A DNA stretch of 43,966 nucleotides from an uncultured Bacteroidales bacterium (GTDB taxonomy: Bacteria; Bacteroidota; Bacteroidia; Bacteroidales; UBA4417). Below, in pieces: positions 74 to 43,223 of this stretch. The stretch's first letter is position 1. Every line of letters starts with the position of its first letter. The DNA is taken from assembly GCA_937965665.1 (NCBI GenBank), contig CALCJE010000148.1, positions 1 through 43,966 on the forward strand, read 5' to 3'. A program made the translations under genes and the position numbers. Below the pieces are notes generated by a model that did not search any database, had not been told where the DNA came from, and saw nothing but the letters and a program-made list of their open reading frames with translations.

Positions 74-961
74 TTGTACCAGGTTGATTTTCCAAAGCCA
101 CTTACAGCAAGACGAAAGTATTACCATGCCTTAATCGATAATGAAGCAACTCGGTATCTTAACGAATTTCACCAGGAGATGTTGGCAGCCTTGAATGATG
201 ATGAGAAAAAATACCTGGTTCATACCGCGCTCAACAAATTGCTTATTCAGAAGCTGAAGGAAACCTCCGCTGTTATTAATGAATACCAGTATTTCTTTAG
301 CAATGTTGCCGGACCTTCAAAATCTACAGGTAGCCCTAATATTGGTGATGATAGCTATTCACTGCAATTCCTCAAATATCAGCTAATCCGCATCTATCTC
401 GAAATCCAGTATTCATATATAGATTTTGTTAAAGCAGATTCCTTAACCGAGGGCGATATTCTGCAACTCTATTTTTCGGAATCAGCCCCCGATAAATCAT
501 TTATTCAAGAATCACCTAAAATCAAAATCCAGGGGCCTGAATTAAAACTTACTAAAAAATTATCGTCAAATCCATTCAATCCCAGGAAAGGTGATTTCAG
601 GCCAGAGAAGAAAGGAATCCTATCCTTCAAGACTATGATTAAAAACCCTGATCGTTTCCTCCGGTTTGAGGAAGAGCTTTTTGATCATGGTTTAATTAAC
701 GAAGATTATAATTTTTCTGACCGGCATACTCAAAAACAGGAATTAGCCGCTATTTATCAAACATTGATCAAGAAAGGCTATTTCCAGAAAAGGGATTTCC
801 AAAGGCTTAAAGACATTAAACATGTCGAAATCCGTAAATTCCTTGATTACAGATACAATGCTGATTTGGATAAACAATTTAGGTTTTGGGAAAATGATCC
901 TGATGGATTAGCAAATTATATACAAGATCGGTACTGGCTCGACAAATTACCAACATGCTAA
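74..961 (+). CDS. Hypothetical protein, probably 5'-truncated by the contig edge
   Basis: The frame is open back to nt 56, directly after the adapter. The listed start is TTG. No motif recognised. Confidence 0.5.
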   Translation: MYQVDFPKPLTARRKYYHALIDNEATRYLNEFHQEMLAALNDDEKKYLVHTALNKLLIQKLKETSAVINEYQYFFSNVAGPSKSTGSPNIGDDSYSLQFLKYQLIRIYLEIQYSYIDFVKADSLTEGDILQLYFSESAPDKSFIQESPKIKIQGPELKLTKKLSSNPFNPRKGDFRPEKKGILSFKTMIKNPDRFLRFEEELFDHGLINEDYNFSDRHTQKQELAAIYQTLIKKGYFQKRDFQRLKDIKHVEIRKFLDYRYNADLDKQFRFWENDPDGLANYIQDRYWLDKLPTC

Positions 962-1160
962 ATTGCGGTAATTTGCTGTCAATTTACCATTTCAAATTTC
1001 CACTATTTTTCTGAATCTCTTATCTGATAAGCCTTTTAAGCTTGTCCAAATTTCCATTTTCTAACTTCCAGAGCATAGTTGCCAAATTCGCAGAGTCTTC
1101 GACAATCGGAGATGACTTTTGGCCAGAAGTCCATTTTCTCAAATTAATACCATTAAGACA

Positions 1161-1460
1161 ATGGACGAAGTATTATTGCGTCTCGACAGAATTGAAAAGC
1201 TTATCCTTAACCAAAACCTGCTACAAAAGGATGTGCTTAACTTCAATGAAACCTGCGATTACCTTGAGCTATCGCACTCTCACCTTTACAAGCTCACGAG
1301 TACCGGAGCTATCTCTCATTACAAGCCGAACGGCAAGAAAATCTATTTCAAACGCTCCGAGTTGGACGAGTGGGTTCTTCGTAACCGTGCCGCCACCACA
1401 GAGGAAATAGAAACTCAGGTTTTTGATAACATTATGAAAAGCAGGAGGACCAGGTCATGA
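1161..1460 (+). CDS. Helix-turn-helix DNA-binding protein, excisionase/MerR-like (HTH_17-type)
   Basis: The segment NFNETCDYLELSHSHLYKLTSTGAISHYKPNGKKIYFKRSELDEWV fits the excisionase-family HTH pattern. I prefer ATG 1161 (MDEVLL) over the TTG at 1119. Its stop overlaps the next start as ATGA. Confidence 0.7.
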   Translation: MDEVLLRLDRIEKLILNQNLLQKDVLNFNETCDYLELSHSHLYKLTSTGAISHYKPNGKKIYFKRSELDEWVLRNRAATTEEIETQVFDNIMKSRRTRS

Positions 1461-1753
1461 TCGAAGTAATGGAATTATTAATGAACCTTTCTCGTGACTT
1501 CGGGATTGTAAAAACCTATGTGCTTTCTCTGCAAAGATCTAAACTGGATGATTTCAAAGATACCTGGATTGATGGTCAGGATGTGATGATGACTTTGCAT
1601 ATCAGCAAGCGCACACTTCAATCCCTGCGCGACGAGGGAACGCTGAATTTCAGCAGGATCAACGGAAAGTTCTATTACAAGGTTTCGGATATTGAATACC
1701 TTCTGGAATCACATTATTCAAAGAATAAACCTTCCGGCCATGGATCTGAATAG
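1457..1753 (+). CDS. Second helix-turn-helix DNA-binding protein (excisionase-like)
   Basis: The segment QDVMMTLHISKRTLQSLRDEGTLNFSRINGKFYYKVSDIEYLL is a paralogous HTH pattern. ATGA overlap with the upstream gene. Confidence 0.7.
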   Translation: MIEVMELLMNLSRDFGIVKTYVLSLQRSKLDDFKDTWIDGQDVMMTLHISKRTLQSLRDEGTLNFSRINGKFYYKVSDIEYLLESHYSKNKPSGHGSE

Positions 1754-2660
1754 AGATAACATCCTGCGCAAAACGCACTATGGTTTGAATATTTATTCCC
1801 ATGTGCTCCGTTACTATTATCCTGATGAGACAGTCCTTTCCTTATTCGGAAGGGACTGCCTTCCTGCTAAAAACCCTTTCAATGGGGATAAACCTACTTT
1901 GTTGGTTAAGGTTATTGACAATATTGCTATTCACTCTGATACCGAATTACCAGATTTTAAAGGTGATGCTTTCGATTTTGCCGCCTTGCACTTTAAAGTT
2001 CAAGATACAAAACTCTTTGAAAAGATAAACGAAGCCTGTTACCTCCGTTTAGGAGAGCTGCACCGCAGTCTTACTGGTAATTCATTTCCGGAATCATTCA
2101 TTAAACCGGAACCAACAATGAATAAGCTGCCAGTATTCAGTTATTTCAAAGCACCGGTCTCTAATATTGTCCCTTCCAAAAGCATTAGCATTCTTGATGC
2201 TTTCAAAATGATCAAAGGCGATATGTTTCTGAAAAACACTAAGAATCTTAGAAACCTCACTGACAAAATAGAAGCCAGGAAGTACAAAGCTGCTAACTTC
2301 GATTATGTCACTTTCTCGGGCACTTTTTCAGAACGAAATGATAAAGCGTTGAGAAAGCATTCCGGATTGATGGCAATAGATTTTGACCACATCCCGAATT
2401 TATCTGAACTTAAAAACAACCTCCTCAGTGATGAATATTTTGAAACTGAGATATTGTTTTATTCTCCTTCCGGCGATGGCCTTAAATGGATTATTCCAAT
2501 CGATCTGTCAAAAGCCTCTCACCCTGATTACTTCAAAGCCGTTGCAGCCTATATCCTCCAATGCTACCAGGTGAAAGTGGACCAATCAGGAAAGGATATT
2601 TCACGTGCCTGTTTCCTTCCTTATGATCCTGATGTGTATATCAATCCTAAATACTGGTAA
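1740..2660 (+). CDS. Primase-like protein (BT4734/VirE N-terminal-type primase-polymerase fold)
   Basis: LMAIDFDHI is an acidic DxD-type motif. Size and position upstream of a DUF3987 gene fit. Start chosen at MDLNRD (ATG 1740); the ORF track starts at 1692. Confidence 0.6.
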   Translation: MDLNRDNILRKTHYGLNIYSHVLRYYYPDETVLSLFGRDCLPAKNPFNGDKPTLLVKVIDNIAIHSDTELPDFKGDAFDFAALHFKVQDTKLFEKINEACYLRLGELHRSLTGNSFPESFIKPEPTMNKLPVFSYFKAPVSNIVPSKSISILDAFKMIKGDMFLKNTKNLRNLTDKIEARKYKAANFDYVTFSGTFSERNDKALRKHSGLMAIDFDHIPNLSELKNNLLSDEYFETEILFYSPSGDGLKWIIPIDLSKASHPDYFKAVAAYILQCYQVKVDQSGKDISRACFLPYDPDVYINPKYW

Positions 2661-2663
2661 GCT

Positions 2664-4478
2664 ATGGCTAAAAAAACATTCAATCCTTCCGATTGGCTGG
2701 ACCAGCAACCTAAGCTAAAACCAGCCGTAATAATTCCGGAAAATAAATCCGTTGATAGTGGAGACATTTCAGAAATAGAATCCATTATTCGTCAGATTGA
2801 AGAAAAGCAAATTGATATAGCTTCCGCTTACAGCGATTGGCGCGACATTGGCTTTGCCTTTGCTGATGCATTTGGCGAATCTGGCAGGGAGTATTTCCAC
2901 AGGATTAGTTGCTTTTATCCCGACTATTCTCCAGGTGAATGTGATAAGCAATACTCTAACTGCCTTAAATCACACGGTCAGGGAGTAACCCTCAAGACTT
3001 TCTTCTTTCATGCCAAACAATCCGGAATTTCTCTATCTGGCATCTCTAAATACACCCTTTCAAAGATAGATTTAGAGAATCAGGAAACACCATCAGAAGA
3101 GGACTGGGAAGGCCAACCAACTCTCCCAGATTCTCTGTTTACTCAACTTCCTGACTTCCTCAAACGTGTTGTATCTGTGGCTGATTCCAATGAAGAACGT
3201 GATATTTTATTGCTTGGTTCAATTGTCGCCTTGAGTGCCTGTTTCCCTAAAATCTTTGGCATATATGACGGTAAAAAGGTCTACTCAAATTTGTTCCTCT
3301 TTATCATTGCCCAGGCTTCAGCCGGGAAAGGACGTCTGGTCCATTGCAAGCAATTGGTTAAACCAATCCACAAGTTTTTACGTGATCAGGCAAGATTGCT
3401 GAAGCAGCAGTACGAAATAGACATGGCCGATTATATCGACCGGAAAGGCAAAGATGCTGATGCTGAAAAGCCTGGGAAACCTCCCGAGAAAATGTTATTT
3501 ATCCCTGCCAATAATAGCACTACCGGAGTTTTCCAATTATTGTTTGATAATGATGGCAGTGGGCTAATCTTCGAGACCGAAGGCGACACCCTGGCACAAG
3601 CATTCAAAAGTGATTATGGCAATTACAGTGATGGTTTCCGCAAGGCATTCCATCATGAAACTATCTCATATTATCGTCGCACGGATCGCGAATATGTGGA
3701 TATGGATAGTCCCCGCCTTTCCGCGGTGCTTTCCGGTACGCCGCGACAGGTTGCAAGTCTCATCCCGAATGCGGAAAACGGCCTTTTCAGCCGCTTCATT
3801 TTCTACTTCATGAACATCCGGCCAGTTTGGAAAAACGTTTTTGCGATAACCTCCGACAACGGTCTGGATGATTACTTCGATAACCTGGGAACCGAATTTT
3901 TCAGCCTTTACCAAACGCTGGCAAATGGTCCCGAAATCCAGTTCAACCTCATGGTTGAACAACAGGTAAAATTCAATGCCTTTTTTCAACAAACTCAGGA
4001 TGTGTATCTGAGTTTACAAGGTATCGACTACATGGCAACCATCAGGAGGCTTGGCTTAATTGCATTTCGCATTTCCATGGTCCTTTCTGCGCTTCGCATC
4101 ATGGAAACAGGCAACCTTCCAGAACGAATAGTTTGTGAGGACAATGATTTTCAGATTGCTCTTGAAATGATCACTATCCTGGTAAAACATGCCAGTAAGG
4201 TGTTCACTGAGCTTCCTGCCGAACCTCAGATGCCAAAACGGAAAAACCAGAAAGAAAAATACCTGGATTTACTACCGGCAAACTTTAATCGCCAGGACTA
4301 CCTCAGAATTGCAGCTTCAAGATCCATCCCTGATAAAACAGCCGAAGGTTATATTACCGAGTTTTACAAAAAAGGATTACTCCACCGCGAAAAGCAGGAT
4401 CTTTACATTAATCCGAATGCGAAATCCGGTAATACTCCAAACAAGGAAATTCAGGATTCTAAGGAAGTTAAGGATTAG
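2664..4478 (+). CDS. PriCT-2-like N-terminal domain fused to a DUF3987-type putative helicase/NTPase
   Basis: The N-terminal segment DWRDIGFAFADAFGESGREYFHRISCFYPDYS is PriCT-2-like. AQASAGKGR is a Walker-A-like loop. Follows the primase-like gene with a 3-nt gap. Confidence 0.65.
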   Translation: MAKKTFNPSDWLDQQPKLKPAVIIPENKSVDSGDISEIESIIRQIEEKQIDIASAYSDWRDIGFAFADAFGESGREYFHRISCFYPDYSPGECDKQYSNCLKSHGQGVTLKTFFFHAKQSGISLSGISKYTLSKIDLENQETPSEEDWEGQPTLPDSLFTQLPDFLKRVVSVADSNEERDILLLGSIVALSACFPKIFGIYDGKKVYSNLFLFIIAQASAGKGRLVHCKQLVKPIHKFLRDQARLLKQQYEIDMADYIDRKGKDADAEKPGKPPEKMLFIPANNSTTGVFQLLFDNDGSGLIFETEGDTLAQAFKSDYGNYSDGFRKAFHHETISYYRRTDREYVDMDSPRLSAVLSGTPRQVASLIPNAENGLFSRFIFYFMNIRPVWKNVFAITSDNGLDDYFDNLGTEFFSLYQTLANGPEIQFNLMVEQQVKFNAFFQQTQDVYLSLQGIDYMATIRRLGLIAFRISMVLSALRIMETGNLPERIVCEDNDFQIALEMITILVKHASKVFTELPAEPQMPKRKNQKEKYLDLLPANFNRQDYLRIAASRSIPDKTAEGYITEFYKKGLLHREKQDLYINPNAKSGNTPNKEIQDSKEVKD

Positions 4479-4546
4479 TATCCTTGACTTCCTGAATTTC
4501 CTTAAAATCCTCATTCATCTAATTCCCGCCAATATGCTTTTTTGAT

Positions 4547-4645
4547 AGTAATTTTTGACAGTAATCTCTGATTTTGTCTAAAATTACTATTGGCTAATTC
4601 AAGATGTTCGCTTACATTTGTCTGTAGTGAACAAATGTGTAGAAC
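4547..4645. promoter_or_regulatory. Two long imperfect palindromes in the intergenic region upstream of the pAgo gene (terminator of the backbone operon and/or operator)
   Basis: AGTAATTTTTGACA (4547-4560) pairs with TGTCTAAAATTACT (4575-4588) with 1 mismatch. GTTCGCTTACATTTGT (4606-4621) pairs imperfectly with ACAAATGTGTAGAAC (4631-4645). Confidence 0.4.
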
Positions 4646-4755: not shown

Positions 4756-6825
4756 ATGCCAGATCAAAATCTATTTTTCAACATACTCACTTTCGATTGG
4801 CCAAAGGAGAAACTTATATTTTATTTCAGCAAAAACGACGACAGGTCTTCTTCACGTATCCATAAATCTAATTTCCCAATTGACATATCTTCAATATTCC
4901 CTGATATTTATTCAGAGAATATTGAATTTGTTTATACCACATTCACCTATAAAAAAGCTGGTTTCATCCCCTTAGAAATTGATGCCCGTAATGAAAATCC
5001 GGATCTGATTAAACAGTATTACAACCGGGAGATTAATTATTACTTCAGGAAGGTTATTAAGTTAATAGTAAAAAGAGGTTTTATCGGTGAGAATCAGATT
5101 TGGACATACTCCAAAAAGGTGACTAATAGCACTTATCATTTTTATGAAAGATTTTCCTTCAAGGTTCAGCTCTGTACAGTTAGTCAATTCCCCGAACTGC
5201 TTATTTCTTACGATGGTAGATCAAGGGTTTTAAAATCTCCGGTTTCTCAGCTTGTTAAGTCAGTCTCTCAATCAACATTTATTAACGTTGTTTACAAAGG
5301 AAGAGTCCTCAATTTCGAAGATCTGGTCAATGAGATTGATCTTGATTATTCAAAAGCATATCCAATTCTTAATACAAAGCTTGAAAACGCATTAGGTGTC
5401 GAAGCAGAACCGATTCCAAAAAGCAATCGTTACATATCATATTTCGGAAAAGTTGATGAAATGCGAAAATACTTGCATTCAAAATCTGATTTCAAAAAGT
5501 TAATACCTCTGAACGATGTAAATTTTTATTCAGTTCCGGAAGATTTGATTTCTAAAATAAATGATGAGAGTAACAATTTAGCATTCCATGAAAAAGAAAT
5601 AGGCAGAACCCCCAAAATAGACTTCCGAAAACTAAAGCCATTTAAAAAATGTCCGCATCAGAATGTTCACCTTTTCTTCATTTATCATGAAAATGATGAG
5701 GCTACTAAAGATAAGCTTCAAGATTATTTCGAAAATGGTACATCCTTTTATAGAGGATTAACGGAATATGCTGGGATACTTTTCCACACCGACAAATCAT
5801 CTTCAATTTCATTCAGTGATAAGTTAAACCCGATTCCTGAGATTAGCCAGGGAATTGAACGACTCGATTTAAGTAATCCCGAAATCAAATACCTGGCAAT
5901 TTATCTTACCCCTTATACTAAAGCAGAAACAAGCAAGCAAGAGGTCCGCATTTATATAAAAGTGAAAGAAATGCTCTTGAATCGTGGTATTGCTTCTCAA
6001 TTCGTAGAACCGGCCAACGTGAATGGAGAAAAAGAAAACGATTTTGTATTCAGCCTTACTAATATGTCAGTCGCTATTCTTGCCAAACTTGATGGCATAC
6101 CCTGGCAACTTGGTTCTGATTTTAAAAATGAATTAATTATTGGGATTGGTGCATTTAGGCATTACGCTGATCAGGTTCAATATGTAAGCAGTGCAATCAG
6201 TTTCGATAATACAGGCCGCTTTCACCAATTTGAATACTTCATGAAACATCAAGTGGATGTTTTGGCTGGTTCCATTGCAACAAAAGTTCGTGAGTTTACT
6301 GCAAGCGTCAAACCACCGGATAGAATTATCATTCACTTTTATAAACAGCTAAGTGAAAAAGAACTTGCTCCGATCGAAAAGGCTTTGTTGGAATTAAAAC
6401 TTCCTAATCCTGTACCTATCTTCATAGTCACAATCAATAAAACAGAAGCTAAAGATATTTTTGTTTACGATGCTTCCTGGAAGCATCTTATGCCTATAAG
6501 CGGTACTTATATCAGTATTGGTAATAAGAAATATGTATTGTGCAACAACGCCCGTTACAACAATTTCTACAACCCTAAAGATGGTTTCCCTTTTCCGGTT
6601 AAACTTTCAATTGATTGCACCGAACCTCAACTACTCGAAAATGATGAAACAATAAATGAACTGATCAATCAGGTTTATCAATTTAGTCGTTTGTACTTTA
6701 AGAGTGTCATGCAACAAAATTTGCCTGTCACCATCAAATACCCGGAAATGATCGCAGAAATAGTCCCTTACTTTGAAGTAAATGGAATACCTCCGCAAAG
6801 TAAAAGTAACCTCTGGTTCTTATAA
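4756..6825 (+). CDS. Prokaryotic Argonaute (pAgo): N/L1/reduced-PAZ/L2/MID/PIWI layout, catalytically inactive PIWI (long-B-like)
   Basis: PIWI signature AILAKLDGIPWQL (GIPWQL at 6094-6111) is followed by LIIGIGAF, where Gly (6148-6150) sits where active Agos have the first catalytic Asp (GxDV). The RDG-equivalent segment reads IIIHFYKQ (6325-6348), with no Asp. MID-like Y-x-K...Q pattern in RIYIKVKEMLLNRGIASQF (about 5941-6003). Hydrophobic C-terminus ...NLWFL as in Ago proteins. Only about 60 aa is available for a PAZ-equivalent. Confidence 0.8.
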   Translation: MPDQNLFFNILTFDWPKEKLIFYFSKNDDRSSSRIHKSNFPIDISSIFPDIYSENIEFVYTTFTYKKAGFIPLEIDARNENPDLIKQYYNREINYYFRKVIKLIVKRGFIGENQIWTYSKKVTNSTYHFYERFSFKVQLCTVSQFPELLISYDGRSRVLKSPVSQLVKSVSQSTFINVVYKGRVLNFEDLVNEIDLDYSKAYPILNTKLENALGVEAEPIPKSNRYISYFGKVDEMRKYLHSKSDFKKLIPLNDVNFYSVPEDLISKINDESNNLAFHEKEIGRTPKIDFRKLKPFKKCPHQNVHLFFIYHENDEATKDKLQDYFENGTSFYRGLTEYAGILFHTDKSSSISFSDKLNPIPEISQGIERLDLSNPEIKYLAIYLTPYTKAETSKQEVRIYIKVKEMLLNRGIASQFVEPANVNGEKENDFVFSLTNMSVAILAKLDGIPWQLGSDFKNELIIGIGAFRHYADQVQYVSSAISFDNTGRFHQFEYFMKHQVDVLAGSIATKVREFTASVKPPDRIIIHFYKQLSEKELAPIEKALLELKLPNPVPIFIVTINKTEAKDIFVYDASWKHLMPISGTYISIGNKKYVLCNNARYNNFYNPKDGFPFPVKLSIDCTEPQLLENDETINELINQVYQFSRLYFKSVMQQNLPVTIKYPEMIAEIVPYFEVNGIPPQSKSNLWFL

Positions 6826-6852
6826 TCTTCACATCTTTTAAACCCGGGTATT

Positions 6853-7347
6853 ATGTGCGCTCAATGGAATAACAAAGACGTTCCGCACAAAGGCTGGATT
6901 TTAGTCGATGTGATCGATGTAAGAGAGGATGGCCAGCCAGCTGATGAAACGGATTACGAAAAATGCATGATGTGCGGTAACGAGAAAATTCGATACGTGC
7001 ATATTGTTGAACATAAGGATTTGGATGGTGAATACCGCGTCGGTTGCATTTGCGCCGAAAAAATGACGGAAGATTACATTAATCCCAGGGAACGCGAAAA
7101 AGAACTAAAACGCAAAAGTAATGAGCGTATCAGTTGGGTTAAGAAAAAATGGAAAACTTCTAAGTCTGGCAATATATTTCTAAATATTGATGGAAACAAT
7201 TTAGTCGTTTATAATGATAAGATCACTGGTAAATACAAATGCAAACTAAACGACAAATTCGGCTCTATTACCTACAATGATCTTAGTGCCGCCAAAATCG
7301 GCCTTTTCAAAAAGATGGAAGAGTTAAAGCAAAAGGGGAAATGGTAG
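6853..7347 (+). CDS. Uncharacterised four-Cys zinc-ribbon protein, co-operonic with the pAgo
   Basis: 28-nt gap after the pAgo stop, same strand. CMMCGNEKIRYVHIVEHKDLDGEYRVGCICAEKM gives a CxxC...CxC arrangement. It is followed by a Lys/Arg/Glu-rich helix (REREKELKRKSNERISWVKKKWK) and a small C-terminal domain. No family recognised. Confidence 0.7.
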   Translation: MCAQWNNKDVPHKGWILVDVIDVREDGQPADETDYEKCMMCGNEKIRYVHIVEHKDLDGEYRVGCICAEKMTEDYINPREREKELKRKSNERISWVKKKWKTSKSGNIFLNIDGNNLVVYNDKITGKYKCKLNDKFGSITYNDLSAAKIGLFKKMEELKQKGKW

Positions 7348-7382
7348 AAATATCCTATTTATGACTAAGGTTTAAAAAGTAA

Positions 7383-10300
7383 TTACGCTCCCTCCACAAT
7401 CCCTATTTCCTCCTCCGTCAACCCATACAACTCATACACCATCCGGTCTATTTCCTTATCCGTTTTATCGATTTCAGATTTTAATTCCAAGACAATTTGC
7501 TTTTGCTCGTTAAAATAATGCATCCATTCGACTTCAGAAGATAGACTCAGTTGTACTCTAGCCTTTTTAAGTTCGTTTAAAAAATCTTTAAAATCTAGCT
7601 CATCCCAATTTAAAATATTATTGCTTGGCTTTTCAATATCAAATTTATTCCGAAATAAATTTGTGAAATCTGATATTATAGTTTGCGATTGATTAGTCTG
7701 AGTAACTATTTTTTGAACTTTTTGTATAACTTTCTCAATTATTTCTTTCGAAGCTAGTTTGATTGGAAGTTTTCTTATATCACCTATAAGTATCTTAGGA
7801 AATGTTGTTCGATTACCTTTTGGAGATGTCTTTAAATTGAACCATGAAATCAGTTTAGAATTAATAATTGCTAAAAGATATTCACTTCCGATTTCGGTAA
7901 TATTTAAACAAGAAATTATACCAGGATCATGGTATAAAGTGCCATCATAAATTGTTGCTGTTATTCTGGGTGGATGCCCACCAGTTATTTCTTGTATCAA
8001 GATTCTTTTCCCATTAAAATATTTGGATTTTCTTGGCCGGTGTAACCACTCTCCATATTTTAAATACTCATGAACTGAAATATCAATACCATAACGATTA
8101 AGCGATCTTCCTTGAATCCAAATTCCCCATTCGTCACTAATTTTTGTATCATTATGATAAATTCTACTTTTAACCTGATCCTTTGAAAGATTTTCTGTTG
8201 AATAAGGAACGATTCCTTGGCATACATCTAAAAATGATGAGCCCAACTCTGCATTTGTAGATATTTTAGAAATGATAGAAATATCAATTTCATTCTGCCA
8301 GACTTGAAATTGCTTGTCATTCGACTTTGTCCAATTTGCTATCAAAGCTTCTTCAGCATCTATAGATTCTATTGAAAGTTCTTTACTCTTTGTATCAATG
8401 TGCAATATTTTACATTTTTCGACAAAAGCATTCTTCCCTAAAATGAATAATATTGGATTAACGCTTGCATCATCAAAAACTGAATGTTCAAAAGTTACAA
8501 TAGTGTTAATACCATAATTACTAAGAACATGTTCTCTTAATTTTTGCGCTTGAGGAATATTTATCCATGTATCAGGTGTTATATAGCCTGCTTTACCCTT
8601 ATGCTTAGCTAAAACATTTAACAGCTCAATAAAGAAAAAGTATATCTCAAAGTTGCCTTGAAATGTACTCATATGACTTTGATAATATTCTTTTGAAAGT
8701 GCATCTAAATATGCACCGTACGGCGGATTCCCAATTACCACATCAAATCCCCCTTTTTCAAATACAGTTGGAAATTCAGCCTGCCAGTTAAATGCTTTAT
8801 CACCTGCCACAGCCGGATCGTCAATCAGCGAGTTGCCGCACTTGATATTGTTGTTTAAATCGTTCAGCTTGCGGTTAGGTTGGGCAGTACGCAACCAAAG
8901 GGAGAGTTTGGCTATCTCAACACTCTCCTCATTTAAATCAACTCCAAACAGGTTGTTTTCGAGTATATTCTTTTCAAAATCGCTCAGCACCAAAGCATCG
9001 CCAAAAAGCTTGGCCTGTAATTCGTCGATATAGCGGTGCTCGTTTATCAGGAAGTCGAGCGCCTGGTTAAGGAAAGCTCCCGAGCCGCAGGCCGGGTCGC
9101 AAATGGTAAGTTGCAAAAGCCAGTCGCGGTATGCGGTAAGTTTTTCAAATAAAGGCTGAATGGTTTTCTTTGTACGTTTCCGGTCGGTGATATACTCTTC
9201 CTCAATCAGTCCGATTTTTGCTTTTTTCTCCATGCAGAGCTTGCCAACGGTGTTATCAACAATATACTTTGTAATGTATTTCGGAGTATAAAAAACACCA
9301 TCCTTTTTACGCTTGCTTTTCGATTTGTCAACCTGCTGCCCTTCGAGCTGCGCTTTTATTTCATCCAGTTCGTTCAGAGAGTTTTCGAAAATATGGCCCA
9401 GGATATTCACATCCACTTCGCTGGCAAAGTCATACTCCGAAAGCTTCAGCGTATGCCTGTATAGTAGTTCATCATCAATTTTTAGCCCATCCAGCAGTTC
9501 ATCCGTTTTAAACAACCCACCGTTATACGCGAATACATCGTATCGTTTCCCTTTAAAGCCGGTATTGAGATATTCAAAATACTTTTTAAACCTGGCATAC
9601 AGGGCTATTTCCACATCTCTGTTTAACAACTCGCGCCAATCGTCCAGTATAAGTCTCACCGAATTAGGTGGTAGCAATTGCCTATCCTCTGCAAAAAAGA
9701 GAAACAGGAACCGGTCCAGCAGCTTTTGCGATTTTTTAAAGAGCGTCAACGGGTCATGATCCGGATTGAGTATAACCAGGTTCTGATGCAGTTCCCTTTT
9801 AAACAGCGAATAATCGTTATACAGGTTTTTCGTAATTACGTCTTCCTGGCTTACCGATTCATCTTTTATTCGCTTTGCAAGATTTTTCTCAATATTTACA
9901 AATGCCAGGCATAACCACAGCAGTTCAAACTCTTTCTCACTAAGCGTAAACAGGTTGAACTCAATATTCTCAATGGCGTTATCAATATAAAAACGCAGCT
10001 TCTCAAAATTGGAAGTGATCACATACACACATTCCGGCTGGTTGTTCTTATAGCCGAAAGCCTGGGCTTCAATACGGTTTAAGTCGGTGGTTTCAGTTCC
10101 TTTGAGTTCTATAACCGCCTTTACCACACCATTGATCAGTATGGCTCCATCGGCTTTTTTACTGTCCTTTACATTTTTGTATTCGGTAGTAATATTGAAA
10201 TTTGGTGCCGGGTTCTTGGTATAGCCCAGCACATTAACAAACAGATCGATCAGGAACTCGCCCTGGTATTGTTCTTCCTTGCTGTTGCGAATGTTTTCCT

Positions 10301-10412
10301 GCACCTCAGGATCATGAAAACGAGCTACGAATTTGGCGTATGCAGTTTTTATAGCAGCGGAATCCTGCGTTTTTAGGTGTTTATTAAGAACTGAATTTTG
10401 AAAGAATTTCAT
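7383..10412 (-). CDS. Type IIG (single-chain) restriction endonuclease / N6-adenine DNA methyltransferase with C-terminal specificity region
   Basis: N-terminal PD-(D/E)xK-like motif ADGAI...AVIELKG (D at 10149-10151, ELK at 10101-10109). SAM motif I DPACGSGAF (9072-9098). Catalytic motif IV NPPYG (8715-8729). The 1009-aa size and layout match MmeI/Eco57I-like enzymes. Confidence 0.8.
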   Translation of the reverse strand: MKFFQNSVLNKHLKTQDSAAIKTAYAKFVARFHDPEVQENIRNSKEEQYQGEFLIDLFVNVLGYTKNPAPNFNITTEYKNVKDSKKADGAILINGVVKAVIELKGTETTDLNRIEAQAFGYKNNQPECVYVITSNFEKLRFYIDNAIENIEFNLFTLSEKEFELLWLCLAFVNIEKNLAKRIKDESVSQEDVITKNLYNDYSLFKRELHQNLVILNPDHDPLTLFKKSQKLLDRFLFLFFAEDRQLLPPNSVRLILDDWRELLNRDVEIALYARFKKYFEYLNTGFKGKRYDVFAYNGGLFKTDELLDGLKIDDELLYRHTLKLSEYDFASEVDVNILGHIFENSLNELDEIKAQLEGQQVDKSKSKRKKDGVFYTPKYITKYIVDNTVGKLCMEKKAKIGLIEEEYITDRKRTKKTIQPLFEKLTAYRDWLLQLTICDPACGSGAFLNQALDFLINEHRYIDELQAKLFGDALVLSDFEKNILENNLFGVDLNEESVEIAKLSLWLRTAQPNRKLNDLNNNIKCGNSLIDDPAVAGDKAFNWQAEFPTVFEKGGFDVVIGNPPYGAYLDALSKEYYQSHMSTFQGNFEIYFFFIELLNVLAKHKGKAGYITPDTWINIPQAQKLREHVLSNYGINTIVTFEHSVFDDASVNPILFILGKNAFVEKCKILHIDTKSKELSIESIDAEEALIANWTKSNDKQFQVWQNEIDISIISKISTNAELGSSFLDVCQGIVPYSTENLSKDQVKSRIYHNDTKISDEWGIWIQGRSLNRYGIDISVHEYLKYGEWLHRPRKSKYFNGKRILIQEITGGHPPRITATIYDGTLYHDPGIISCLNITEIGSEYLLAIINSKLISWFNLKTSPKGNRTTFPKILIGDIRKLPIKLASKEIIEKVIQKVQKIVTQTNQSQTIISDFTNLFRNKFDIEKPSNNILNWDELDFKDFLNELKKARVQLSLSSEVEWMHYFNEQKQIVLELKSEIDKTDKEIDRMVYELYGLTEEEIGIVEGA

Positions 10413-37618: not shown

Positions 37619-37630
37619 TTTGATTTTCAG

Positions 37631-37704
37631 TGACCCCGCCAGGATTCAAACCTGGAACCTTCTGATCCGTAGTCAGATACTCTATTCAGTTGAGCTACGG
37701 GGCC
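37631..37704 (-). tRNA. tRNA-Arg (anticodon ACG)
   Basis: The minus strand GGCCCCGTAGCTCAACTGAATAGAGTATCTGACTACGGATCAGAAGGTTCCAGGTTTGAATCCTGGCGGGGTCA folds by hand into a 74-nt cloverleaf. It has a 7-bp acceptor stem (one G-U pair), D stem GCTC/GAGT, anticodon stem TCTGA/TCAGA with loop CTACGGA, and T arm CCAGG-TTTGAAT-CCTGG. CCA is not encoded. Confidence 0.95.
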
Positions 37705-42938: not shown

Positions 42939-43029
42939 AATGGTTATTAAAATCCGGGTAAACATGTGAGCATTACCTGCCATTGACAGACCCTGCCGCT
43001 GCTTTTAACCCGAAAGCATTGAACAAAAC

Positions 43030-43215
43030 ACATAGGCAGGTCTTCTGACTTTCTCCCCCTTCCCGGCGCCTTCCCATAACAAATTAAAGTTACAGTGGCA
43101 AAAGGATTGCCGGTGGGTTCATTCGGAGATTACAGCAGCGGGACTGTCCGGGATTTGCACCCGATTCCCTTTTAAGGCATTCCCATTGCAAATGGGATGC
43201 ACACCGTTGATGGGA
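43030..43215 (-). promoter_or_regulatory. Cobalamin (B12) riboswitch
   Basis: The minus strand reads ...AAAAGGGAATCGGGTGCAAATCCCGGACAGTCCCGCTGCTGTAATC...TTTTGCCACTGTAAC...ATGGGAAGGCGCC...AGTCAGAAGACCTGCC. It contains the B12-box core GCCACTG (plus-strand CAGTGGC at 43093-43099) and the other conserved blocks in the canonical order. Confidence 0.9.
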
Positions 43216-43223
43216 CAAAGGTA
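43216..43223 (-). promoter_or_regulatory. Candidate -7 box (TACCTTTG) driving the riboswitch/btuB operon
   Basis: Plus strand CAAAGGTA is minus TACCTTTG, matching TAnnTTTG, just upstream of the riboswitch. Confidence 0.45.

Follow-up and report, generated by a model that had tools for sequence, protein, structure and literature searches.

An RsAgo-like, slicer-dead Argonaute on a Bacteroidota integrative element and the probably independent small gene behind it

Prokaryotic Argonautes (pAgos) of the long-B clade have no DEDX tetrad, usually carry a reduced PAZ domain (PAZ*) and have a YK-type MID domain (Ryazansky 2018, PMC6299218). Here we describe a member of this clade encoded in a 43,966-nucleotide (nt) stretch of DNA from an uncultured Bacteroidales bacterium (contig CALCJE010000148.1 of GenBank assembly GCA_937965665.1, hereafter the window), together with the gene for a 164-amino-acid (aa) protein that follows it closely on the same strand. 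We consider it fairly likely that the two are a stand-alone, element-borne, RsAgo-like dead pAgo and an independent small-gene cassette, taken as one combined statement.

Several described systems invite comparison. In BPAN, BPAS and BPAM (EcAgo with bAgaN, GbAgo with bAgaS and EaAgo with bAgaM, respectively; PMC10620215, PMC13535254) an inactive long-B pAgo is likewise followed immediately by a gene on the same strand, and RsAgo, which is chromosomal and alphaproteobacterial, has a predicted nuclease downstream (PMC10620215). A further long-B subclade is associated with VirE_N proteins (og_54; Song 2023, PMC10620215). [quoted passage not shown] The pAgo of this group co-occurs and co-evolves with the integrase and the PrimPol-helicase module, abortive infection was judged "less likely" for it, and its function was left open (PMC11724360); our literature search found no work on AgaPP-associated pAgos later than that study.

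The pAgo of the window is a member of this published AgaPP-associated group. An earlier note on the same DNA, made from the letters alone, had proposed a two-gene operon in which the small protein represents a new class of effector or adaptor for a dead pAgo, or else a pAgo that cooperates with some other nearby factor as a fallback. The two genes are:

4756..6825, + strand: long-B prokaryotic Argonaute with the architecture N-L1-PAZ*-L2-MID-PIWI, slicer-dead by prediction, with a YK-type MID pocket (Pfam, PADLOC, HMMER, AlphaFold2/Foldseek)
6853..7347, + strand: 164-aa soluble protein with an N-terminal zinc ribbon and a basic C-terminal domain (open reading frame, alignment, AlphaFold2)

Identity and fold of the Argonaute

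Both open reading frames (ORFs), of 689 aa and 164 aa, lie where the earlier note had placed them, and the interval between them (6826..6852) is 27 nt rather than the 28 nt that it gave. There is hardly any doubt that the 689-aa protein is a pAgo: aa 396–670 match Pfam Piwi (E=4.7e-16; bit score 59, cut-off 28.9), and the protein matches PADLOC pAgo model PDLC02385, a long pAgo model and its best match in PADLOC, from end to end (E=2e-242), so that a database of defence systems already has a model for this protein family. The PIWI and MID hallmarks reported earlier are thereby borne out, and the contrary outcome that the note had allowed for, no PIWI or MID profile or fold match, did not occur, as Pfam, PADLOC and Foldseek all returned matches. 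By sequence, AfAgo, RsAgo and EcAgo come closest among solved proteins; all significant solved homologues are long-B proteins, and the clade assignment draws on them.

An AlphaFold2 model built from 19 homologues (predicted local distance difference test, pLDDT, 83) retrieved RsAgo ternary complexes as the best Foldseek matches over the whole length of the protein (E=1e-25) and also aligned with eukaryotic Argonautes, the RsAgo and eukaryotic alignments both spanning about 800 columns with template modelling (TM) scores of 0.66–0.69. This full-length structural match identifies the protein as a long rather than a short pAgo, in agreement with the earlier description of a PAZ-reduced, long-B-like protein, and the PAZ* region is small (about aa 160–220, as read from secondary structure rather than from residue-level superposition). 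A short pAgo system (SPARTA, SPARSA or SPARDA) was considered and ruled out on the full length of 689 aa, the long pAgo model as best match and the absence of an APAZ partner; no neighbour had an APAZ, TIR, SIR2 or DUF4365 match in Pfam or PADLOC.

HMMER alignments to the inactive RsAgo, AfAgo and EcAgo pair the motif ELIIGIGAF with ELVVGMGLA of RsAgo, and RIIIHFYK with RVVFHAHR. Among the 19 family members over which residue conservation was judged, G463, G465, H527, F528, Y529 and K530 are all invariant. We take G465 and Y529 to occupy two aspartate positions of the tetrad, going by the known positions of the GxDV and RDG motifs; all five best solved-structure alignments are to inactive long-B proteins, and no active Argonaute was among those aligned. 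The two catalytic acids reported missing in the earlier note are therefore missing at these columns. Also invariant in the 19 sequences are the MID residues Y400, K404, Q415 and K444 and the C-terminal W687-F688-L689 (WFL), and a pocket for a 5'-phosphorylated guide is therefore expected.

By its sequence and predicted fold the 689-aa protein is a full-length, slicer-dead, RsAgo-like long-B pAgo. Its catalytic inactivity and reduced PAZ region are clade-wide traits of long-B proteins and no peculiarity of this gene. RsAgo of Rhodobacter sphaeroides (PDB 5AWH, 6D8A), the best full-length structural match, shares the substitutions of the tetrad aspartates and the YK-type MID, although sequence identity is only about 14–15% and RsAgo is a chromosomal, alphaproteobacterial protein with a gene for a predicted nuclease downstream. 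AfAgo of Archaeoglobus fulgidus (PDB 1W9H) comes nearest in sequence among solved proteins over MID-PIWI (profile E=6e-25) and is also catalytically dead; it is, however, truncated and completed by a separate N-L1-L2 protein (PMC10954474), whereas the window pAgo is full length at 689 aa and its 164-aa neighbour has no N-L1-L2-like fold. EcAgo, the pAgo of BPAN, is a detectable homologue as well (profile E=1.5e-15). Unlike the downstream partners in BPAN, BPAS and BPAM, the 164-aa protein is neither a nuclease, a SIR2 nor a membrane protein, and it shows neither co-occurrence nor co-evolution with the pAgo family, as set out below.

The small protein and the company it keeps

On the pAgo side we sampled 80 species-representative loci, the 80 top-ranked of 501 or more pAgo loci, all from Bacteroidota and with pAgos 40–58% identical to the 689-aa protein; on the small-gene side, 98 genome loci carrying members of the 164-aa family were compared. 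A tblastn search within 6 kb of the pAgo found a homologue of the 164-aa protein in none of the 80 loci, and a more sensitive profile search found one in 86, a divergent HNH-like fusion in locus L052. Even pAgos 84%, 80% and 60% identical to that of the window are without the small gene, and the slot 14–41 nt past their stop codons is filled by genes for a 258-aa protein of unknown type, a 2,703-aa DEAD/UvrD helicase and a 633-aa unknown protein. Locus L090 has the small gene, and the nearest relative of the L090 pAgo (in L023, 81% identical) is without it.

Viewed from the small gene, a pAgo adjoins it in 9 of the 98 loci (about 9%), upstream in some and downstream in others, and about 90% of the loci of the family are without a pAgo, most copies lying behind restriction-modification (RM) genes. 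The 57 immediate co-directional upstream neighbours comprise 12 HsdS, 5 HsdR, 5 Piwi, 3 type IIG/ISP, 2 type III Res and 2 AEP-TOTE proteins, the rest being assorted. The 164-aa family clearly functions without a pAgo. Where the two genes do meet, their identities are discordant, the small gene being 79–86% identical where the pAgo is 45–59% identical, and so the 164-aa gene neither co-occurs nor co-evolves with the pAgo family. We think it likely that it is not the dedicated effector of this pAgo, and the earlier proposal of a new effector or adaptor class fares poorly against these counts. The HsdS-like proteins encoded before the small gene are unusually long in ten loci (609–755 aa), with Methylase_S matching their N-terminal part only; a typical HsdS has about 400 aa.

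Several observations weigh against such independence. All small genes at least 79% identical to that of the window follow a pAgo, with a gap of 27–30 nt (window, L090, L091, L092, L187/188 and L190), and the pAgos of this lineage are only 45–93% identical to that of the window over the C-terminal 250 aa; that one gene recurs behind distinct pAgo lineages could be due to a functional connection between the two and not to recombination through the conserved pAgo 3' end. Six further, divergent family members adjoin a pAgo in either order, L052 has a pAgo followed by the HNH-like fusion of the 164-aa domain, and the raw adjacency of 9% probably represents an enrichment, since pAgos are rare. The earlier note had made its pairing depend on homologues of the pAgo neighbouring the small-gene family: none of the 80 does by tblastn, but "never" would overstate the case, as in one lineage the small gene is invariably preceded by a pAgo.

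The window and L091/L092 become similar at the DNA level some 170 nt ahead of the pAgo stop, where that gene is most conserved. Across the 80 pAgo loci, downstream genes mostly start 12–40 nt past the pAgo stop and differ even between pAgos that are 80–84% identical, and this variety at so short a distance suggests that the conserved 3' end of the pAgo gene anchors a recombination hotspot. The simplest reading of the lineage pattern is cassette exchange by recombination through that 3' end, which leaves room for a facultative link between pAgo and small gene in one lineage. An in-frame ATG within the conserved codons for ...NLWFL-stop makes many downstream ORFs seem to overlap the pAgo by 13 nt.

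We also clustered the ORFs of the 80 loci in search of shared neighbours. No universal alternative partner emerged, the commonest neighbours being the element backbone and type I HsdR, and outside the backbone no gene is conserved beside the pAgo. The flanking genes include type I HsdR, YgjP, RhuM, BsuBI/PstI, GmrSD, type III Res, AraC, FUR and DUF6660 with AcrB efflux genes; an efflux association of pAgo was previously reported by Ryazansky et al. (PMC6299218).

The 164-aa protein itself had no match in Pfam, PADLOC, NCBIfam, PHROGs or a PDB sequence search. Across 59 homologues, C38, C41, C65 and C67 are invariant together with H50 and H54, forming a CxxC...CxC pattern with two histidines. 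The AlphaFold2 model (pLDDT 88) combines an N-terminal strand and zinc ribbon (acidic, with an isoelectric point, pI, of 4.6), a long basic helix (aa 76–97) and a basic C-terminal domain of four strands plus a helix, the last weakly PUR/Whirly/PC4-like, which we regard as a hint only. Foldseek gave no significant fold match against the PDB (best E 0.4), and a search of BFVD returned only partial matches to uncharacterised phage proteins (best E 0.025). A membrane effector resembling bAgaM was rejected, as the maximum 19-residue hydropathy is 0.24 and there is no transmembrane segment. No enzymatic or toxic feature could be recognised with profile libraries or sequence features, and the earlier statement that the protein lacks the known effector domains (SIR2, TIR, Mrr, HNH or membrane) agrees with the lack of any profile or fold match.

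The family is large and widely distributed, with 478 matches in a word-indexed search and 1,998 clusters at 50% identity by profile. Homologues occur in 44 plasmid records, mainly from Aeromonas, Agrobacterium and Rhizobium and in 32 cases conjugative, and in four phages; in an Oscillospiraceae phage the small gene follows a restriction endonuclease. The pAgo family of the window was not found on the plasmids that carry 164-aa homologues. Bacteroidota copies and those of gammaproteobacterial conjugative plasmids (Aeromonas salmonicida pAsa4 and an E. coli IncC plasmid) are about 50% identical, indicating either recent cross-phylum transfer or strong constraint. On pAsa4 (NC_009349.1, 68914-69498) the small gene lies beside, and divergent from, a pair encoding an AAA-ATPase and a UvrD helicase. 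On Agrobacterium pTi_CFBP2516 (NZ_KY000047.1, 162023-162523) a homologue directly follows an operon for cyclic-oligonucleotide-based antiphage signalling (CBASS) that comprises patatin, a DncV-like CD-NTase and a ThiF/Cap2-like protein. This is the usual position of Cap3, and a helix-turn-helix (HTH) and ImmA/IrrE gene pair lies upstream. Given that slot, Cap3/JAB was considered as an identity, and we take the HxxxH plus four-cysteine pattern of the 164-aa protein to differ from the JAMM motif.

In rare cases, five proteins in our searches, the 164-aa module forms the C-terminal extension of a UvrD/PcrA-type helicase, after UvrD_C and Tudor regions, and a further protein contains repeated copies of the C-terminal four-strand-plus-helix domain. 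The gene in L052 (8046-8744, +), directly after a pAgo gene at 5995-8058, encodes about 223 aa in which divergent zinc-ribbon and C-terminal domains of the 164-aa family (profile E=3e-10) are combined with an HNH-like CxxC...HH...CxxCH motif that stays below the Pfam HNH threshold (E=0.0027). The fusions to UvrD helicases and the HNH-like motif suggest a role for the 164-aa protein in DNA transactions, possibly together with superfamily 1 (SF1) helicases.

The integrative element around the pair

We read the first 10.4 kb of the window as the right-hand portion of an integrative mobile element of Bacteroidota, of which the pAgo is a conserved cargo. Besides the two genes above, the following features were recognised:

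74..961, + strand: DUF6617 protein, the first visible gene of the element backbone (Pfam DUF6617 E=7e-10)
1119..1460 and 1457..1753, + strand: a pair of small genes of the HTH_17 (excisionase/MerR-like) type (Pfam HTH_17 E=4.5e-12 and 6.7e-07)
1692..2660, + strand: BT4734-like/VirE_N primase-polymerase of the AgaPP type (Pfam BT4734-like_N E=4.8e-20; PADLOC PrimPol E=3.8e-23)
2664..4478, + strand: PriCT_2-DUF3987 helicase of the "AgaPH" type, partner of the PrimPol (Pfam DUF3987 E=5.9e-55, PriCT_2 E=5.2e-14)
4462..4493, + strand: terminator-like hairpin closing the DUF3987 gene, a 14-bp stem followed by a T-rich tail (consensus match only)
4545..4590, + strand: promoter-like TTGACA-18-TAAAAT (4555-4584), 170 nt before the pAgo start and within a 16-nt inverted repeat (consensus match only)
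7383..10412, − strand: type IIG restriction-modification enzyme, its gene convergent with the small one and 35 nt separating the two stop codons (Pfam Eco57I E=4.5e-44, TaqI_C; PADLOC REase_MTase_IIG E=3.5e-298)

The backbone genes upstream of the pAgo recur in 23–29 of the 80 related loci. The gene at 74..961 is homologous to an ORF cluster (c4) found in 23 related pAgo loci and preceded there by a tyrosine integrase (c7); an integrase with Phage_int_SAM_5 and Phage_integrase domains precedes the DUF6617 gene, at the outer end, in about 20 related loci. The HTH_17 pair is found in 24–25 of the 80 loci, and the PriCT_2-DUF3987 helicase lies upstream of the pAgo in 29. Metagenomic contig L190, which also has the HTH_17 pair, shows an identical gene order, ending with the pAgo and then the small gene. 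The window begins just past the position expected for the integrase and does not include the att/tRNA ends of the element, and its sole tRNA lies 27 kb off.

This arrangement is that of AgaPP-associated clusters of the Seonamhaeicola sp. S2-3 type (PMC11724360; og_54, PMC10620215), in which PrimPol, PriCT-DUF3987 helicase and long-B pAgo follow in the same order on one strand, with HTH genes and variable defence genes flanking them in a Bacteroidota integrative element; the likeness was judged on gene types and order. The window differs in that its pAgo directly follows the helicase, while that of AgaPP clusters is usually 2–8 genes away (PMC11724360). The earlier fallback, a pAgo working with something else nearby, fits that study, given the PrimPol-helicase module directly upstream.

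The window also lacks the HTH_31 regulator gene that fills the interval before the pAgo in 27 of the 80 related loci, and no remnant of it was found in the 277-nt region upstream of the pAgo. The inverted repeat at 4545-4590, whose 16-nt arms are 94% complementary, might represent an orphaned operator. Between the pAgo and 164-aa ORFs (6826..6852) nothing resembling a terminator was found. The operon proposed in the earlier note is thus plausible as a two-gene transcription unit, with a promoter-like site upstream and no terminator between the genes, both judged from consensus matches.

The convergent type IIG layout recurs in L090, and L191 has a co-directional type IIG gene. An Rfam scan returned nothing in the pAgo locus. 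Far from it, and unrelated to it, are a tRNA-Arg(ACG) at 37630-37704 (−) and a cobalamin riboswitch (95.8 bits) at 43018-43223 (−). Between 30500 and 35500 the window has about 5 kb with no ORF longer than 144 aa, a GC skew of −0.14 to −0.22, no rRNA or other Rfam match and no notable repeats, which is unusual for a bacterial genome.

What the pair may do

One alternative reading is a general accessory, the 164-aa protein cooperating with whichever DNA-targeting immune gene lies upstream, be it a type I, IIG or III RM system, a long-B pAgo or CBASS. It might then act as a regulator, as a sensor of anti-defence or as an adaptor through which a host UvrD-type helicase or nuclease is recruited to the DNA that the upstream system has engaged, and in the window it would serve either the pAgo or the convergent type IIG enzyme. 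The small gene is indeed nearly always co-directional and 5–40 nt behind a defence gene, RM subunits and pAgos dominate its upstream neighbours, and type IIG enzymes adjoin it in the window, L090 and L191. The copy directly behind the CBASS operon on pTi, the AAA-ATPase/UvrD-helicase pair on pAsa4, the fusions with either UvrD C-terminal/Tudor regions or an HNH-like motif, and the basic four-strand-plus-helix domain all point the same way. Nevertheless a single physical interaction is difficult to square with partners that differ so greatly in mechanism as RM, pAgo and CBASS, many copies lie beside non-defence genes or alone near relaxase, SSB and RadC regions, and neither fold nor motif supports a regulatory or sensor activity. 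We therefore hold the general accessory to be unlikely, and distinctly unlikely in its most specific form, a pan-phylum family that plugs in behind immune genes and here is an adaptor of the dead pAgo, for example coupling target DNA to a UvrD-type helicase or nuclease.

A dedicated, lineage-specific partnership would make the zinc-ribbon protein an adaptor or effector that binds the dead pAgo, and hence the pair a new type of long-B system. Known long-B systems have their effector downstream of the pAgo (PMC10620215), and the short gap without an intervening terminator, the likely own promoter upstream of the pAgo and, in L052, the occurrence of the domain in an HNH-like fusion after a pAgo are all consistent with such a pair, which is moreover kept in all contexts of the small-gene lineage of at least 79% identity and across pAgo sublineages. 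Set against this are the 80 pAgo relatives devoid of the small gene by tblastn, the other slot genes behind pAgos as close as 84%, 80% and 81%, the roughly 90% of the family without a pAgo (including plasmid and phage copies in other phyla), the discordant identities and a protein with no toxic, enzymatic or membrane feature, and we rate a dedicated partnership as very unlikely. Less credible still is that the small protein benefits the element itself, as an anti-restriction, anti-defence or DNA-processing factor for its establishment, with the gene merely accumulating in the same variable islands as defence genes. Its presence on conjugative plasmids, integrative elements and phages across phyla, the 50% identity between Bacteroidota and Aeromonas copies, the acidic N-terminal domain and one copy (L081) in an SSB/RadC/relaxase region resembling a leading region would suit such a factor; the gene is, however, usually co-transcribed behind the restriction genes of its own host element rather than placed in leading regions, and no similarity to known anti-restriction folds was found.

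The reading that we prefer is that of a stand-alone dead pAgo with an independent cassette behind it. The identities, architecture and neighbourhood statistics given above were observed in this analysis; what follows about guides, interference and the role of the small protein is inferred from them. The pAgo would load 5'-phosphorylated small guides into its intact YK-type MID pocket, bind complementary invader DNA and interfere with no need for slicing or for a dedicated killer effector encoded beside it, whether through occupancy or through factors of the host or the element, so that element and host would be protected against rival plasmids, phages and elements. By analogy, stand-alone interference of this RsAgo-like kind is probably what the pAgo provides, and the PrimPol-helicase module might conceivably contribute, for instance to guide supply. 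The 164-aa gene would be one cassette in a fast-turnover slot just 3' of the pAgo stop, belonging to a horizontally mobile family whose members typically trail DNA-targeting defence genes at their 3' end. The architecture of the protein and the rare UvrD and HNH-like fusions suggest that it may have an accessory function of its own, associated with nucleic acids or helicases.

A tempting false lead is thereby removed: the dead pAgo adds one more member to the AgaPP-associated long-B group and is no orphan with a mysterious new effector. The group has already been flagged in the literature as an unlikely actor in abortive infection and as functionally unsolved, and the window offers a compact PrimPol-helicase-pAgo example that is convenient for testing its function. 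If true, the adaptor reading would add a new effector logic to this functionally unsolved group of Argonautes. The small-protein family, large (about 2,000 clusters), strongly conserved and unannotated, is a reasonable candidate for defence-island screens.

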